DNA from: an uncultured archaeon
GTDB lineage: Archaea > Asgardarchaeota > Lokiarchaeia > Sigyniarchaeales > SOKP01
Direction of reading: 5' to 3'
Length of the DNA stretch: 64,000 bases
NCBI GenBank assembly: GCA_964447495.1
Contig: CAYUTF010000001.1
Coordinates: 116,400 to 180,399 of the forward strand
In this document: one piece after another, positions 20,239-29,248 of the stretch
Numbering within the stretch: position 1 is the stretch's first letter
Layout of the letters: each line of letters starts with the position of its first letter
Program-made: the position numbers and the translations under genes
Notes under the pieces: generated by a model
The model's input: the letters and a program-made list of their open reading frames with translations, nothing else
What the model was told of the DNA's origin: nothing
The model's database searches: none

Positions 20239-21198
20239 TTATGTTAAAGGATTTTTTGCGTGTAAGTTAAATCCTTCAGATTTATCTATTATTTTATGTG
20301 TCCTTTTATCATATTTTATTTGAAATCCGTATCCTCTGCCTCGATAATAACTTTCAGCAAGAAGAATTGTGATTTCCATTATAGATTCCGATTCTTTTAT
20401 AAAGGGAATTTTATATTCCCATTTGGAAAAAAATGCATAATTCTGTGCGATTATCAATGCTTCTTCAAACAATTTGGCTTGAAGGGAATTCTTTTCAAGG
20501 GTAGTTTCGATGAGAAGGTTAGAATGTGAATTAAATGAAAGTTTTTTGATAAGTTTAAAATTTGTTTGTTGTTCATGAAAATCAGTAGTATAAATTAAAT
20601 AAGAAAAAGGATTTATTCCAGGAATAAAGTGAGAGTTTTTTGGTAATTTAAACTGAACCCATATTTTAATGATAATTCGATATGAAAAATATAGGATATA
20701 AAAAGCTACCAAGAAAAAAATAAGCTTAGAAAAATAGAGCGCAGGCCATACAAAGAAAATGATAAAGTAAAACAAAATCATTCCGCCCGAAACTAATGCT
20801 AAATTAAAGTTAATTGCTCTATCGATAAAGAATCTTACTTTTTTTTTATAAAATGGATAAAAGAGTGGAATTTTTGAAGCGCATAAAGCATCTAAAGACA
20901 AATGTAGACTATAGAATAGAAAACCAACTATCCATGCTAATAGAAAGGGCTCATTTGTGATAAATGAGAAAATTACGCCTGTTAAACCAGACACAAGAAA
21001 AGCAAAGAAATAGGAATGGGAAATACCCTTATGAGAAAGAAGGGGAGTATTCTTTATTCTTTTAAGAGGATATAAGAATATATCGAAATCAGCTAACACA
21101 GCCATTACTATCGCATACATTACAATGCTGAAACTAAATGAATTTAGTGTGAATAGACTTAGAAATATCCCTAATAAAAAATGCGTAAAAAAATCCAT
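20239..21198 (-). CDS. YdjM-family inner-membrane metal-dependent hydrolase
   Basis: MD..TH, LAD.D, H.G.SHS and H..LD motifs. Confidence 0.85.
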   Translation of the reverse strand: MDFFTHFLLGIFLSLFTLNSFSFSIVMYAIVMAVLADFDIFLYPLKRIKNTPLLSHKGISHSYFFAFLVSGLTGVIFSFITNEPFLLAWIVGFLFYSLHLSLDALCASKIPLFYPFYKKKVRFFIDRAINFNLALVSGGMILFYFIIFFVWPALYFSKLIFFLVAFYILYFSYRIIIKIWVQFKLPKNSHFIPGINPFSYLIYTTDFHEQQTNFKLIKKLSFNSHSNLLIETTLEKNSLQAKLFEEALIIAQNYAFFSKWEYKIPFIKESESIMEITILLAESYYRGRGYGFQIKYDKRTHKIIDKSEGFNLHAKNPLT

Positions 21199-21485: not shown

Positions 21486-21854
21486 TCAACAGCCTACATC
21501 TGGTTGTAATTGAATTTCACTCTCGGGATATACGTTGAATTCGATATTATCCCTAATTGGATTGAATTTCTGCATAATACCATTCTCATCTGGGGCATAT
21601 GCATATATTCCAACATCTTCATATATCGAATTCGTTTCAAAATTTACTAATAGTTGCATATAATTATGAATATACCCCTCATTAATCGGAAATATTGTCG
21701 TCTCTGAATTCATTGCTTCGATTTTATCGACCATTGCTAAGCATTCTAAAAAGGAGGCATCCTCTTTTATGTTGATCGTATACTTCTTCCCTTTTTGAAG
21801 TCCCTTTATTGGGAGACTTATTTCAAATTTAATTGTTTTCATATTTTCCCTCAT
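21486..21854 (-). CDS. Small hypothetical protein, possible ubiquitin/MoaD-like beta-grasp fold, ending PDVGC
   Basis: Strand-strand-helix pattern with a C-terminal EIQLQPDVGC, like MoaD/SAMP IxLxPPVxGG. Directly downstream of the ferredoxin. Confidence 0.55.
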   Translation of the reverse strand: MRENMKTIKFEISLPIKGLQKGKKYTINIKEDASFLECLAMVDKIEAMNSETTIFPINEGYIHNYMQLLVNFETNSIYEDVGIYAYAPDENGIMQKFNPIRDNIEFNVYPESEIQLQPDVGC

Positions 21855-21877
21855 TTTAATAAATATTATTAAATTAT

Positions 21878-22198
21878 TTAGCTACAGCAAGAACCGTTCT
21901 TTTTTGTTATTCTTTGTCGAGCATCCCAAAGGCATCCGCATCCTTTTTGTTCAAACATACTTATAGCACCTACAGGACAATTTCTCTTACATGCACTACA
22001 CTCCGTACATAATGCTGGATCACTAATTCTATATTTATTATTAGCTTTTTTTTGCGGAAGTCCAAATGGACATACTTCGGCACAAACCCCACATCCGATG
22101 CAAATTGATGTTATTATTGAAATGCGGATATTGTTTAATGAAGGGATGCTACAACAGGAATTTTTTTCTAATTGCTTTATATTTATCTTTTCAATCAT
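21878..22198 (-). CDS. HgcB-like 2[4Fe-4S] ferredoxin
   Basis: Two CxxCxxCxxxCP motifs, GCGC after the second cluster, C-terminal vicinal CC and an extra N-terminal CC. Follows the HgcA-like gene. Confidence 0.85.
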   Translation of the reverse strand: MIEKINIKQLEKNSCCSIPSLNNIRISIITSICIGCGVCAEVCPFGLPQKKANNKYRISDPALCTECSACKRNCPVGAISMFEQKGCGCLWDARQRITKKNGSCCS

Positions 22199-22223
22199 AA
22201 TTGATTTTCCTATAATTTTTAAT

Positions 22224-23906
22224 TTAAATTAATAAAATGCTAATTAATGAAGATATGACGCTAATAACCAATAAAATTTTATTAACTTTTGTAAATAAAC
22301 CATATTCTTCTTGAATTTCTCTTGGACTGGTACTCATTGAATATCCACTAAAGGACATCGTAGAAAAAAAGGAAATCCAAAATATCATAGGCGTATTTAA
22401 TAAAATATATGCGAAAGGCTTTTGTAATATCCAAAAAGTTCCTCCTAAGATTATAATGGTAATGATACCAAACACTAATCCTTTTAAGATAAATTTTCTG
22501 GTGAAATTTGAAAGGGGAAATAAAAATGAAATAATCAAATTTGAAGTAATAATCCATAAAATGAAATCTATCACCCAATATAGTTTATTGAACCAAGGGA
22601 ATACTACTAAAAAAATAATTAGTGATGCAATAATAGGATAAAAAAATACTTTTCTTAATAAGAAAGTGGTATGTGTTATGAAGGCTCTTGTTCTATGGAA
22701 TATATTAAATTTTGCAAGCTTCATATTTGCTGGTTTTTGAACGGGCTTATTTTTTAGATATTCTGGTATATATTTTGACCATATAGGTCCATATTTAGCT
22801 TTGAATGGAAAATTTTTTGATTTCTTTGATAGATTTGGCATTGAAACGCCTCCTGCGGAAAGTTGAGGAAGCAATAATAGTTCATTTTTTGTATAATTTT
22901 GAACTCCCGTCGCTTCAATGGCTTCAAGAACCTGTTGGTTGCCGAAATCATTACCTCTAGCAGCACACCATACATTAATACCATTTGTATCAATAACTAA
23001 GACCCATACATCAATATCTTTTAAATCTCTCATTACCTTAATGTATGTAAAATCATAGTTAGCAGTGACAATTATAGGTGATTTCCTTGTTGGATTTCCA
23101 GATTGATATATTCCTGGTTCAATAGGAACTCTATCGATTTGACCAGTGAATATACACCTAAATATTCTAAATTGAGATAAAATACCTTTATATTTTTTCA
23201 TTTTGGGTTGATAGTAGCCAGGTTCTTCTTTTCCTTCATTATTAAATTTCACTAATTCAATTACTTGAATCGAATTATGCTTCCAAGTCTTTTTATCAGT
23301 AATCTTGAACCCAATCGGGTTTAAATAGTTAAAAAAATATTTATTGAGTTGTGTATTTTTCAAGCGATATCTTCGGATTTTCTTTTTATATCGCCACCTT
23401 CTTAGACTAAAACCTATTTTCCAAATCCCTAAGGGCATAAATTCGGTAGCAATTATTAAACGCCCTCCTTTTTTTAGGATTTTCCACACATTCCGCAGAA
23501 AAATTTGTTGTTCTAAAGGCCTAAGTTCAGAAAGCATAAAAGTACTGATTACTAAATCCTGTGAACTGTGAAAGACAGTCAAGTTATTAAAAGAGCCAAT
23601 CTGATAAAGTAGTTTTCCTGCTATATCACTTGGATAATTAGCCATCGCATAATTAATCATTTGAAAATTTTTATCAATTGCTATTACATTTTTTCCTTTT
23701 TGTTTCGCAATTCTAGCGGCTAATGTACCTGGACCGCAGCCTATCTCAAAAATTGAATTATCATTATTAATACGGTCTATTATCCAATCATTTATCTCAA
23801 GGTTTATTCCTTTAGTTAGATTTGTGAACTCTTGCTCGTAAGTTTCAGGTTCCTCTTCTAACTTTTTCATATAAGTTACTGCCATAATTCTCAGATCATA
23901 ATTCAT
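22224..23906 (-). CDS. Class I SAM methyltransferase fused to an HgcA-like corrinoid-binding domain and TM helices
   Basis: N-terminal FEIGCGPG. Then EPGIY..G.P...SP.IVTANY..T, DT.GINVWCAARG (cap-helix variant), LLLPQLSA.GV, YGP and about 5 C-terminal TM helices. Confidence 0.88.
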   Translation of the reverse strand: MNYDLRIMAVTYMKKLEEEPETYEQEFTNLTKGINLEINDWIIDRINNDNSIFEIGCGPGTLAARIAKQKGKNVIAIDKNFQMINYAMANYPSDIAGKLLYQIGSFNNLTVFHSSQDLVISTFMLSELRPLEQQIFLRNVWKILKKGGRLIIATEFMPLGIWKIGFSLRRWRYKKKIRRYRLKNTQLNKYFFNYLNPIGFKITDKKTWKHNSIQVIELVKFNNEGKEEPGYYQPKMKKYKGILSQFRIFRCIFTGQIDRVPIEPGIYQSGNPTRKSPIIVTANYDFTYIKVMRDLKDIDVWVLVIDTNGINVWCAARGNDFGNQQVLEAIEATGVQNYTKNELLLLPQLSAGGVSMPNLSKKSKNFPFKAKYGPIWSKYIPEYLKNKPVQKPANMKLAKFNIFHRTRAFITHTTFLLRKVFFYPIIASLIIFLVVFPWFNKLYWVIDFILWIITSNLIISFLFPLSNFTRKFILKGLVFGIITIIILGGTFWILQKPFAYILLNTPMIFWISFFSTMSFSGYSMSTSPREIQEEYGLFTKVNKILLVISVISSLISILLI

Positions 23907-24936
23907 TGCTTTGATTTTGTGATTTCCAAAATCCTTTCTTCATTAAATATCTCCCTAAGTATACTATAGAGAGCATTACCGGGACTTCCCAGAAGAGACC
24001 CATGGTTGTTCCTAATGCTGCCACAGATCCAATCCCATACATTGCAATAGCAGTTGCGATTGCAATCTCAAAATGACTCGATGAACCGATAATTACTGTG
24101 ATTATTGCTTCTCTATATCGTAATTTGAATACTTTAGTTATGATTACATTATATAATACAACAATAACAAATCCAAGCAATAGAGGTGCTGAAACCAATA
24201 ATAGGAGGTCAGGGTTAGTAATTAGGACATTCCCATTCAATGAAAAGAGTACGATTAAGGTTACTAATAATGCGCCAATAGATACCTTTCCCACAAATGG
24301 ACGATAGGAGTTATTAAACCACTCATCTCCCTTAGTTGATATAATTAATCTCTTAGAGATTATACCTAATAGTAATGGAATACCGATAAAAACTATAAGA
24401 GATATTAGAAGCAACATAACGTCAATAGGGATATTTTGAATACCCGTGAGTAATGATACCATGCCCACATATAAAAAGATAATAGTTATGGTATTTAAAC
24501 TGGTATTAACTACATTCTGTTCTTGATTTCCACGAGCCATCCACCCCCATACAAGTACCATCGCAGTACATGGGGAACTTGATAATAAAATAACTGCAAC
24601 AGATAATTGTTCATTTCCTTGTAAAAATAGCTTCACCATGGCAAGCCCTACAAAGGGGGCAACTAACCAATTAGAAACTAATGTTAAAATTATTGGTTTT
24701 GGATTTTTACCTAACTTTTTTAACTCGGATGCTTGTAGATTGAGCATCGCAGGATACATCATTAAAAATAAACATATGCCTATAGGAATGGATATTTGTC
24801 CAATTTTTAATGAATCAATAGCTTGACTTATTTGTGGTACGAGTTGAGAAAGTAAAATTCCAATGAAGATACATAAGGCAACCCATAATGGGAGAAATTT
24901 TTCGAAATAACCAATTTTTTTCTCATCCTTACTCAT
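23896..24936 (-). CDS. acr3: Acr3-family arsenite efflux transporter
   Basis: LFLMMYP, SNW, SPCTAMVLVW (conserved Cys), FEIAIATA and EVPVML motifs. Confidence 0.93.
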   Translation of the reverse strand: MSKDEKKIGYFEKFLPLWVALCIFIGILLSQLVPQISQAIDSLKIGQISIPIGICLFLMMYPAMLNLQASELKKLGKNPKPIILTLVSNWLVAPFVGLAMVKLFLQGNEQLSVAVILLSSSPCTAMVLVWGWMARGNQEQNVVNTSLNTITIIFLYVGMVSLLTGIQNIPIDVMLLLISLIVFIGIPLLLGIISKRLIISTKGDEWFNNSYRPFVGKVSIGALLVTLIVLFSLNGNVLITNPDLLLLVSAPLLLGFVIVVLYNVIITKVFKLRYREAIITVIIGSSSHFEIAIATAIAMYGIGSVAALGTTMGLFWEVPVMLSIVYLGRYLMKKGFWKSQNQSNEL

Positions 24937-24977
24937 TATTCATCAAGGATTTCAAATCTTTGATCATATATAAACTT

Positions 24978-24995
24978 AATCGACATATATCGATT
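24978..24995. promoter_or_regulatory. Putative ArsR operator AATCGA-N6-TCGATT
   Basis: Perfect 6-bp inverted repeat between divergent acr3 and arsR. It abuts a minus-strand TTTATATA box (24967-24974) about 30 nt upstream of the acr3 ATG. Confidence 0.55.
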
Positions 24996-25085
24996 TGGGG
25001 GAATAGAGACTTGGTAATAGCTTAAATTTATATTTATCGATGTATTTAATATTATAGAGAATAAAAAAATATAGGAAATTTTAAT

Positions 25086-25475
25086 ATGAAACCCCAGAGA
25101 ATTCCTGAAATTAAAAAAATGTTGTGCTCTTGTCAAGAATGTTACGAAACAAACGGATATTTCACACAATTACATGATTTAGGGAAATCTTTAAATCAGA
25201 ATGAGAATTTAAATAGACTCATTATGTTTGCTTCAGCTTTATCTTCAAAAGACCGATTGATTATCCTTAGGACTTTAAAGGGAAGAGACAAATGTGTATG
25301 TGAATTAGAAGTAGTGTTAAACAAATCTCAATCTACTATTTCACATCATATTGGGAAGCTTTTAACTGCTGGCTTAATTGAAGGGTATAAAAAAGGGAAC
25401 TTCACTTATTATCACCTTTTAGAGGACAATTTAAAAAGTCAAATAGAAATATTAAATAAAGAGCTTCAAGTTTAA
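25086..25475 (+). CDS. arsR: ArsR/SmtB-family metalloregulator
   Basis: R..IL..L...KCVCEL...SQSTISHH..L..AGLI, with the As(III)-type CVC motif and an extra N-terminal CSCQEC. Confidence 0.9.
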   Translation: MKPQRIPEIKKMLCSCQECYETNGYFTQLHDLGKSLNQNENLNRLIMFASALSSKDRLIILRTLKGRDKCVCELEVVLNKSQSTISHHIGKLLTAGLIEGYKKGNFTYYHLLEDNLKSQIEILNKELQV

Positions 25476-27973: not shown

Positions 27974-29248
27974 TTGTTGAATTTCATTATGGATGACGAT
28001 AATACAAATTTTGACAGTACACAGTTTCTTAAAGTTATCAATTCAATAGAGATTCGAATTGAAAGAGAAGATATATTTTATCGGGAGAAATATAATGACA
28101 TTATGAATTATTTTAAGGTAATGTTAACCGAAAATACCAACGCTTTAATCAATGATTACTCAAAAATAATTAATCTAAAGGGCGTACTATTAATCAACAT
28201 TGGTCAAAATAGTGATATCAATGATTTCTTAAAACTAATATGCAAAAACTATTACCTAGACTTTATTGAATTAAATTATGAAAAAGTTTATTTTAATCAA
28301 GAAGTTTTCCTACAAAATTTTAATGCGATTATGGAAAATATCATAAGTATAGAAACTAATAATAAAAAACCTAAAGATGATAATGATAATTCCTTAAATA
28401 TGGAATATGAATCTCATATAAAAAAATTAATAATAATTGATGAACACAAGCTGAAATTAAGGTCAAATAAAGAAATAAATCTCTTGGAAGTTTTTATAAA
28501 TTCTAAATTTAGTGAGAGAAATTTTATTGAGAGTAAAACCATATTAATTTGGATTAATGATTTAATGGAAAAGGTAGCTCGAAATTCGCAAAAGATATTC
28601 AATATTTTTGATCTTTTTATTAACATTCCTGCTTTAGACCAAGTCGAAAGAGAAGCTGTTTTAAGGCATTTTTCCGAAGTATTTCCAAAGATTGTATTTG
28701 ATCTTGATATGATGGTTAATTATACTAAATTTTGGGAAGTAAATGACATCAAAAATTTAATAAAATTAGGAATTTTTAAGCATTTTCTTAAATCTGAATT
28801 GAATGAAAAGTCAAATGAAATTACTGATTTACTAATTGAGTTAATTGAGTCAAGGGAATTCATTCCTTCAATAAATTTTGATACAAAAAATAATCAATTA
28901 ATCATAAGTGAAAATCATTTAATCCAAAAGCAAAATAAAGGTAATATAAAAATGATGGATATGAAATATGTTGAAGAAATTAACACATATCTCGAAGAAA
29001 TAAAAGGTGAAACCATTTCGGATTTTATGCTTAGCCAATTATATGAAAATGCAGCTTCAAAAAATTATAAAGAATTACAAATAATTATAGAGAAAATTAA
29101 TAAAGGGGAAATTCTCGAAGAAAATGATAGGTTGATTTTAGCAAGATATCCCTTTATCTTAAATGAAAATCCTAATAAAGCTTTAATAGCCCTTGAAAAA
29201 GCAAAAAAAACAATTAGTCGAATAAGTCAGATATTTAGAAAAGTATAA
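27974..29248 (+). CDS. Degenerate AAA+-like protein (Walker A lost)
   Basis: KGVLLINIGQNS at the Walker A position, LIIIDE Walker B, and FDLFINIPALDQVEREAVL lid motif. The start may be ATG 27989. Confidence 0.55.
   Translation: MLNFIMDDDNTNFDSTQFLKVINSIEIRIEREDIFYREKYNDIMNYFKVMLTENTNALINDYSKIINLKGVLLINIGQNSDINDFLKLICKNYYLDFIELNYEKVYFNQEVFLQNFNAIMENIISIETNNKKPKDDNDNSLNMEYESHIKKLIIIDEHKLKLRSNKEINLLEVFINSKFSERNFIESKTILIWINDLMEKVARNSQKIFNIFDLFINIPALDQVEREAVLRHFSEVFPKIVFDLDMMVNYTKFWEVNDIKNLIKLGIFKHFLKSELNEKSNEITDLLIELIESREFIPSINFDTKNNQLIISENHLIQKQNKGNIKMMDMKYVEEINTYLEEIKGETISDFMLSQLYENAASKNYKELQIIIEKINKGEILEENDRLILARYPFILNENPNKALIALEKAKKTISRISQIFRKV

Follow-up and report, generated by a model that had tools for sequence, protein, structure and literature searches.

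An HgcA-like corrinoid protein fused to a SAM methyltransferase domain in an ars-type operon of an Asgard archaeon: a candidate metal(loid) methyl-transfer system

The closest described systems to the locus reported here are the mercury methylation proteins HgcA and HgcB and their paralogues. In the available text on purified HgcAB, the methyl group comes from S-adenosylmethionine (SAM) via a Cys-ligated methyl-cob(III)alamin, and the HgcB residues C73, C94, and C95 are needed (PMC11588087). The accessible part of a second source states that the definition of HgcA requires the cap motif N[V/I]WC[A/S][A/G/S]GK (PMC10087281). True hgcAB is sometimes ars-linked and arsenic-induced, according to the available portions of the literature (including 10.1101/2022.10.17.512643). 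The native role of HgcAB and of its non-methylating 'fused' paralogues is a standing question in mercury biogeochemistry. Herein, we describe an operon that makes this question concrete and testable. It lies in the genome of an uncultured Lokiarchaeial archaeon (assembly GCA_964447495.1, 3.8 Mb, 98% complete), within a window of 64,000 nucleotides (positions 116,400 to 180,399 of contig CAYUTF010000001.1), which is the whole stretch of DNA analyzed. Behind a divergent arsR gene, the operon reads acr3, a fusion of a SAM methyltransferase domain with an HgcA-like corrinoid protein, an HgcB-like ferredoxin, and a small conserved protein (Table 1).

Two other described systems share parts with the fusion. 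The large subunit of CFeSP (AcsC/CdhE) has a homologous PF03599 cobalamin-binding domain and is a methyl carrier needing low-potential reduction. However, it has no transmembrane (TM) domain, and it receives its methyl group not from SAM but from methyl-tetrahydrofolate or -pterin, via a separate methyltransferase. CdhD-family genes are found elsewhere in the window genome, in contigs C6 and C30. ArsM/AS3MT has the same class I SAM methyltransferase fold and is likewise an ars operon member. ArsM has several arsenic-binding cysteines, whereas the methyltransferase domain of the fusion has one Cys and scores 29.4 bits against the ArsM model NF008823 (cut-off 263). The domain in the window would act on cobalamin, not directly on arsenic.

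The initial annotation, made from the sequence alone, had read the 560-aa protein as a class I SAM domain (EIGCGPG) joined to a corrinoid domain (NVWCAARG) with about five TM helices. Pfam, motifs, and the structural model all agree with this reading. Class I methyltransferase domains were matched at residues ~45-175, with EIGCGPG at residues 54-60, and CdhD/PF03599 was matched at residues 242-351 (58.9 bits, cut-off 24.8). The CpaM model NF043040 covers residues 11-217 with 120.1 bits (cut-off 180), spanning profile positions 3-213 of 216. Residues ~260-556 match both the HgcA model NF040863 (172.5 bits, cut-off 275) and the HgcAB-like model NF043039 (170.8 bits, cut-off 285), and the latter match ends at profile position 251 of 350. 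Within the methyltransferase domain, G56, G58, G60, D78, D117, E127, and E155 are invariant in all 48 aligned sequences. The whole fusion contains three cysteines, C57, C251, and C314, the first being the only one in the methyltransferase domain and the last being the cap-helix residue, which is kept in 120 of 120 family members among the matches listed.

The AlphaFold2 model of the fusion, built from an alignment of 48 relatives, reached a mean predicted local distance difference test score (pLDDT) of 90.3 and a predicted template modeling score (pTM) of 0.88. It presents a methyltransferase fold followed by an alpha/beta domain whose short helix 312-315 bears Cys314, and then five long C-terminal helices at residues 402-435 (kinked), 443-466, 472-495, 498-519, and 528-559. 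The best Foldseek match of the C-terminal ~330 residues was the deposited computational HgcAB model 9a0b_A (E 1.6e-12), and the remaining matches were SAM methyltransferases for small molecules (TMt 0.77 at best). At the sequence level, the relatives in the PDB were only CFeSP large subunits (9fzy, 2h9a, and 4c1n, E ~1e-7) and generic methyltransferases.

Compared with HgcA/HgcB, the fusion operon is alike in its CFeSP-type corrinoid domain, its Cys-bearing cap helix N-V-W-C-A-A, its five C-terminal TM helices, the 2x[4Fe-4S] ferredoxin next to it with a Cys in the middle of the chain and paired cysteines at the C-terminus, the likely use of SAM as the methyl source, and the ars genes sometimes nearby. 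The differences are the extra N-terminal class I SAM methyltransferase domain, the cap helix, which is NVWCAARG and not of the GK type, and the embedding of the pair in an acr3 operon. The ferredoxin, similar to the fusion, stays below the cut-off of its HgcB model NF040864 (53.9 bits against 99). It also carries a GCGC motif in place of the single Cys of HgcB, and an N-terminal CC is found in part of the family.

A quick IQ-TREE phylogeny was computed from 125 rows, after 34 of the 159 candidate rows had been dropped as fragments of less than 270 residues or for having no recognizable cap motif; the tree is unrooted, with support from the Shimodaira-Hasegawa-like approximate likelihood ratio test (SH-aLRT), no bootstrap, and no CdhD/CdhE outgroup. 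A branch of length 1.22 with 100% SH-aLRT support parts 91 HgcA-type rows from 34 rows including the fusion of the window. The GK cap motif is present in 87 of the 91 rows on the HgcA side and in none of the 34 on the other, which consist of 21 N-extended forms, 7 ferredoxin-fused forms, one triple fusion, and 5 short forms. The fusion falls in a clade of 16 rows with 98% support. All four GK-side rows sampled scored above the HgcA cut-off (374-429 bits against 275), and both ferredoxin-fused rows sampled (P0184 and P0246) scored above the HgcAB-like cut-off (375-376 bits against 285). The claim that the cap helix is unlike that of HgcA holds, and the tree proposed along with it places the fusion on the non-HgcA, HgcAB-like side. 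Judged by cap motif, model score, and tree placement, the fusion is not HgcA.

The available text of Lin et al. (PMC10083202) places Asgard sequences in a 'fused HgcAB' subtree, from whose alignment the first 327 columns were trimmed beforehand. These columns are where the methyltransferase domain would lie. No published description of a methyltransferase-fused HgcA, of CpaM, or of the ars linkage was found, and supplements may already include such sequences. CpaM is not mentioned in the accessible part of the preprint of Haft & Gwadz 2023.

The breadth of the family was measured by a word-indexed search with 8000 scored candidates, which returned 1304 proteins at E <= 0.001. All 120 among the matches listed are 541-578 aa long and combine the methyltransferase with PF03599; the fullest database name among them is 'methyltransferase domain-containing protein'. 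In a survey of 301 Asgard genomes with a completeness of at least 80%, 66 of 91 further genomes from the taxonomic family of the window had a close fusion (E <= 1e-60), as did four more of the same order. Two other Asgard families have remoter N-extended forms (130-162 bits), whose open frames are mostly 550-595 aa long. By these counts, the fusion is a member of a large Asgard family and not a one-off. The gene order repeats in related genomes and the fusion architecture is found in all 120 matches listed, and therefore the arrangement is not by chance. When the corrinoid/TM part was used as the query in an exhaustive search, 950 relatives were found at E <= 0.001. Among 150 of those matches listed, most of the ~300-450-aa proteins bear NVWCAAGKGTFG, the group of the window bears NVWCAARG, and the other N-extended or ferredoxin-fused forms bear other non-GK variants.

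The methyltransferase, the corrinoid protein, and the ferredoxin occur as separate proteins, as methyltransferase-corrinoid fusions, as corrinoid-ferredoxin fusions, or as one chain, depending on the genome. The window genome itself carries a second form on contig C2 (L032 743-2526; also L049 9089-10872). There, a free-standing CpaM of 228 aa (251.5 bits, cut-off 180) overlaps by 4 nt with an HgcAB-like gene, whose 366-aa product has a fused ferredoxin, the cap helix NVWCGACG, and no CC tail; the neighbors are SufC/SufBD, peroxiredoxin, and F420H2-quinone-reductase-family genes. Natural triple fusions of CpaM, the HgcA-like protein, and the ferredoxin were also found (P0229, 591 aa; L046 6860-8665 in genome G011, 601 aa). 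In 24 of 24 related loci that extend that far, a ferredoxin gene lies directly downstream of the fusion, and the remaining four break off within the fusion gene. This pattern of fusion and fission is the strongest evidence that the three parts work together, as the initial annotation had supposed, and it makes a contact between the ferredoxin and the fusion likely. That the parts form a module passing a methyl group from SAM to the corrinoid and on to an acceptor is highly probable on this comparative evidence. Since SAM methylates the cobalamin of HgcA, a SAM domain covalently attached to a paralogue would make mechanistic sense.

The module logic, as seen in the comparison of genomes, is well supported, and it was partly anticipated by the NCBIfam models for HgcAB-like proteins (NF043039) and for the 'corrinoid protein-associated methyltransferase CpaM' (NF043040). 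The canonical HgcAB-like plus CpaM pair, of which the C2 locus is an example, shares with the window the same three parts, a position on the non-HgcA side of the tree, and a non-GK cap helix. The difference is the position of the joint. In the window, the methyltransferase is fused to the corrinoid protein and the ferredoxin is a separate gene, whereas in the HgcAB-like form the ferredoxin is fused C-terminally to the corrinoid protein and the methyltransferase is free. The fusion scores below the cut-offs of both models; it nevertheless stands on the non-HgcA side of the tree with a CpaM-type partner as its N-terminal domain, and this domain has the class I SAM motifs and a covalent link to an HgcA-like corrinoid domain.

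The ferredoxin has two CxxCxxCxxxCP motifs together with C15-C16, G-C87-G-C89 (GCGC), and C104-C105. The HgcB-style GCGC and the C-terminal CC, and the position of the gene 25 nt past the fusion, were read directly, in agreement with the initial annotation. GCGCL[WY] is present in all 23 readable ferredoxins of the related loci, and all of them end in a C-terminal CC (CNC in four); the N-terminal CC is found in six.

The gene context of the window is that of an ars operon, in which a CVC-type ArsR/SmtB regulator is divergent from an Acr3 permease. The regulator scores 64.4 bits against the ArsR model NF033788 (cut-off 55). Its cysteines form an N-terminal C14-x-C16-xx-C19 cluster and, ahead of the helix-turn-helix, C70-V-C72; both the CVC and an N-terminal CxCxxC-type cluster are found in 16 of 16 ArsR homologues beside related fusions. 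The permease matches PF01758 with 129.5 bits. In a comparison of 28 related loci from species-representative genomes, an arsR homologue was found in 16 and acr3 in 15, with at least one of the two in 20, four of which are cut off upstream. The Acr3 homologues are 78-89% identical and lie upstream of the fusion in the 15 loci. In one locus (L026), acr3 and the fusion are separated by the gene of a true ArsM, which scores 347.3 bits (cut-off 263), and another (L013) has an ArsC-family gene (138.7 bits against 174.3). DUF166 and DUF2769 genes also occur in the related loci. In the other Asgard families, an ArsR-family gene lies directly upstream of two of six two-domain fusions, which were found in seven loci, and a CC-tailed ferredoxin adjoins four of these fusions.

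We favor the explanation that the operon, governed by an ArsR-type metal(loid) sensor, encodes a methyl-transfer machine of three parts that is anchored in the membrane. The N-terminal class I domain would bind SAM and methylate the reduced, Cys314-ligated cobalamin of the HgcA-like domain. The HgcB-like ferredoxin would give the low-potential electrons that regenerate Co(I), and its conserved Cys pairs may hold a thiophilic substrate, by analogy with HgcB. The methyl-cobalamin would then hand the methyl group to this substrate, which would yield a methylated arsenical. The most probable substrate is As(III) or its congener Sb(III), because the fusion lies ~10 nt from acr3 behind an arsR-type regulator and because ArsM and ArsC genes join the cluster in relatives. 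Methylation of As(III)/Sb(III) is our leading hypothesis, a reasonable one for one subclade that draws on gene context; for the acceptor taken by itself, the odds are somewhat short of even. The explanation as a whole, with the three-part machine and the As(III)/Sb(III) acceptor, is given a rough probability of 0.45. It is less likely than not that the operon encodes the first recognizable cobalamin- and SAM-dependent arsenite/antimonite methylase; this would be a membrane-bound paralogue of HgcA carrying its methyl loader as a fused domain, common among the Asgard archaea of anoxic sediments and able to work without ArsM in genomes such as that of the window.

Arsenic methylation governs arsenic toxicity and mobility in anoxic sediments and paddy soils, and it is at present genetically ascribed to ArsM alone. 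The architecture of this conserved and abundant family spells out a putative methyl path from a SAM domain to a Cys-ligated cobalamin and a Cys-rich ferredoxin, and its genomic address in most close relatives is inside an arsenic operon. If the arsenic hypothesis is true, surveys counting only arsM would miss arsenic methylators, and an arsenite/antimonite methylase of this kind would suggest metalloid, not mercury, methylation as the native chemistry of the HgcAB superfamily. If it is wrong, the family would still mark an uncharacterized B12-dependent methyl transfer common in Asgard archaea.

Several observations weigh against arsenite or antimonite as the substrate. The Acr3 of the window scores 274.9 bits against TIGR00832, just below the equivalog cut-off of 282.8. 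No ars genes were found at eight of the 28 related loci, whose fusions are 55-58% identical and whose ferredoxins have the same Cys features. In this ars-free subclade (L016-L022 and L025), a divergent membrane protein of ~194-202 aa, single-pass in appearance, lies upstream of the fusion in 8 of 8 loci. One or two secreted-looking proteins of 750-770 aa are often present there as well. Neither the membrane protein nor the secreted-looking proteins of the subclade matched a family. The CpaM plus HgcAB-like locus on C2 of the window genome has no ars neighbors, and acr3 was not found beside any of the six two-domain fusions of the other Asgard families. The five-Cys layout of the window's ArsR fits a CadC-like (Cd/Pb/Bi-type) sensor as well as it fits an ArsR. 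Finally, gene context does not fix the substrate, because ars-linked and arsenic-induced true hgcAB methylates Hg. The initial annotation's suggestion of a possible As(III)/Sb(III) substrate is partly supported: the acr3/arsR synteny on which it leaned is strong at the 20 close loci with ars genes, but does not extend to the eight without them, to the C2 module, or to the remoter fusions, where acr3 is absent. On the evidence of the neighborhoods, the arsenic link is real, but it is confined to one subclade.

The idea that the fusion is a phyletic replacement of ArsM was also considered and rejected, and this too speaks against arsenite methylation. No ArsM above the cut-off was found in the window genome (best 68 bits, with tblastn in agreement). 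Within the taxonomic family of the window, however, 23 of the 66 fusion-bearing genomes have ArsM, as do 7 of the 25 that lack the fusion; ArsM and the fusion are therefore distributed about independently, with no complementarity. These counts were made by hand, with the contig-end fragments G055 and G136 scored as without the fusion, and the related genomes are not independent, hence no statistical claim is attached to them. In two cases, ArsM even adjoins the fusion: at L026, which corresponds to G190, and in G109. The proposal of an ArsM-independent route fails as a general property; it may apply to the window organism, but by these gene counts it is not a family property. Many Asgard ArsM matches carry one in-frame TAA or TAG within the match (e.g., G060, G076, and G066); these may be overruns of the match, split genes, or something else.

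The same module could serve other acceptors or other chemistry. The SAM-to-cobalamin-to-acceptor path may be kept with an acceptor that is not inorganic As or Sb, such as a thiol compound, some other small molecule, or a methylarsenical that ArsM has produced or the cell has imported and that would be methylated further. In that case, the proximity of the ars genes would come from shared regulation or from a later step and not from primary arsenite methylation. The presence of ArsM beside the fusion and its co-occurrence in 23 of 66 genomes fit sequential and not redundant roles, the ars-free subclade and the paralogous C2 module indicate that the chemistry of the family is not tied to arsenic, and the methyltransferase domain, with its one Cys, is without arsenic-binding cysteines. 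However, the window genome has no ArsM that would supply a methylarsenical. The vicinal Cys pairs of the ferredoxin, which are typical soft-metal(loid) ligands, are conserved, and the gene lying closest to the fusion, and most often beside it, is acr3, from a permease family that transports As(III)/Sb(III). We consider such an acceptor unlikely, though it is the strongest of the alternatives. A methylase for mercury or another soft metal (Bi, Cd, or Pb), similar to HgcAB and placed under an ArsR/CadC-type sensor with the arsenic genes as neighbors, is quite improbable. The likeness to HgcA/HgcB in the Cys-ligand cap helix, the five TM helices, and the CC tail of the ferredoxin speaks for it, as do the CadC-like regulator layout and the hgcAB-ars linkage and arsenic induction described in the available literature. 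Against it, the fusion fails the HgcA score, lacks GK, and lies outside the 91-row HgcA clade, and no mer genes were found among the open reading frames (ORFs) read around the operon (17.6-29.2 kb of the window). In addition, the accessible parts of two reports state that cultured organisms with related fused HgcAB made no methylmercury (PMC4646819; PMC10087281).

A further alternative is that the corrinoid protein carries out reductive chemistry, for example halomethane dehalogenation, and that the methyltransferase domain serves in cofactor repair or reactivation. Methionine synthase offers a precedent, as its cobalamin is reactivated reductively with SAM. Heterologously expressed HgcAB dechlorinated CCl4, as given in the available text of a 2026 preprint (10.64898/2026.04.26.720869), but that protein is true HgcAB and not of the clade found here. 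The gene context does not contain any pointer to halocarbons. A dedicated SAM methyltransferase is always present across the paralogue group, either fused or adjacent, which suggests a stoichiometric methyl supply. Reductive chemistry is thus very improbable, and arsenite or antimonite methylation is retained as the leading hypothesis.

Other arsenic-related genes of the window genome lie on contig C10 (L041 4893-7533), where an ArsP_1 permease (169.7 bits), ArsE/Thioredoxin_3, a second ArsR, a CxC protein, and a DGC-domain protein are clustered. In the available text of Gionfriddo et al., the same gene set forms an arsenic-induced operon of the organoarsenical-resistance type in Pseudodesulfovibrio mercurii ND132 (10.1101/2022.10.17.512643). 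That an ArsM-free organism keeps such a cluster is suggestive only; methylarsenicals may be met from outside or made another way.

The coordinates of the operon features are collected in Table 1.

Table 1 Features of the operon and its divergent regulator (window positions).
Feature	Coordinates	Strand	Description
arsR, ArsR/SmtB-family regulator	25086..25475	+	129 aa, divergent from operon; PF01022 48.4 bits
arsR-acr3 intergenic region	24937..25085		Candidate promoter/operator; short palindromes with ATCGAT/TCGA boxes
acr3, Acr3-type arsenite efflux permease	23896..24936	-	346 aa, first gene of operon
Fusion, CpaM-like SAM methyltransferase + HgcA-like corrinoid/membrane protein	22224..23906	-	560 aa (ATG 23906)
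Fusion, alternative start Met8	22224..23885	-	553 aa (ATG 23885)
Fusion, class I SAM methyltransferase domain	23247..23885	-	Residues ~8-220; CpaM is best named match
Fusion, corrinoid-binding domain	22719..23186	-	Residues ~241-396; PF03599 58.9 bits
Fusion, cap helix NVWCAARG	22953..22976	-	Residues 311-318; motif reading
Fusion, five-helix transmembrane domain	22230..22703	-	Residues 402-559; model secondary structure and hydrophobic segments
HgcB-like 2x[4Fe-4S] ferredoxin	21878..22198	-	106 aa; NF040864 53.9 bits
Small conserved protein	21486..21854	-	122 aa, C-terminus QPDVGC; no family match

The ORF list, Pfam, and the model agree on the five genes, motifs, gaps, and five predicted membrane helices of the initial annotation, with one amendment. 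The 11-nt overlap of acr3 with the fusion exists only with the first ATG (23906), and the start at Met8 leaves a gap of 10 nt instead. Met8 is favored because of the database gene call (P0001, 553 aa), the family consensus, and the pLDDT below 50 of residues 1-7. The two genes are tightly packed whichever start applies. The gap between the ferredoxin and the small protein is 23 nt, and all four minus-strand ORFs are at most 25 nt apart. In the arsR-acr3 intergenic region, an inverted-repeat search placed boxes at 25036-25041, 24989-24994, and 24980-24983. All 17 corresponding regions of relatives likewise have TCGA-containing boxes, and the ATCGAT/TCGA palindromes are possibly an operator or promoter element.

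The small protein with its GC-terminal end was found after the ferredoxin as annotated, and neither Pfam nor NCBIfam gave a match to it. Its homologues are present in 13 of 13 Acr3-linked loci reaching that position and are missing from the arsR-only loci L004, L005, and L028. The C-terminus is QPDVGC in seven aligned copies and QPDSGC in one, and a paralogous form ends in ...VHAD. The predicted structure is beta-grasp-like (pLDDT 82.7; one of five models confident). Fold and language-model comparisons hint weakly at the cobalamin-binding DUF4430/transcobalamin domain (Foldseek E 0.017; Atlas 0.86 and 0.84, below 0.9), but DUF4430 was not found in 11 members by a Pfam scan at E <= 10, and a cobalamin-binding role is a lead only. 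The other weak fold matches (staphylococcal superantigen-like and EAP) are generic to the beta-grasp and were read as fold class only.

In 12 related loci (L001 9020-9436, L024 9037-9306, and 10 more), a CxC protein is encoded between the ferredoxin and the small protein. It is 90-139 aa long, with the motif D-x-C-x-C-E-W, the tail DLPxLLxxKGL, and often a Cys-rich N-terminal extension, and it has no Pfam or NCBIfam match. It is missing from the operon of the window, and the copy in the window genome is that of the C10 ars-type cluster.

Near-identical DNA was found in several salt-marsh metagenome runs, and 9 of 9 pieces from one run (X2) were at least 99% alike. In a sediment metatranscriptome (X15), short contigs, 90-99% alike, match stretches of acr3 and of the genes for the fusion, ferredoxin, and small protein. 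This is one study of a relative rather than of the strain of the window, and an RNA library can contain DNA, so that X15 gives a weak hint that the operon is transcribed in sediment. arsR and parts of the fusion are uncovered in X15, and nothing was concluded from these gaps.

The operon is flanked by a ~420-aa protein without a known family (27974-29248) and by a YdjM-family membrane protein (20239-21198). Homologues of both also border related operons (e.g., L001 3461-4711 and L002 10095-11054), which indicates that the conserved neighborhood extends beyond the five genes.

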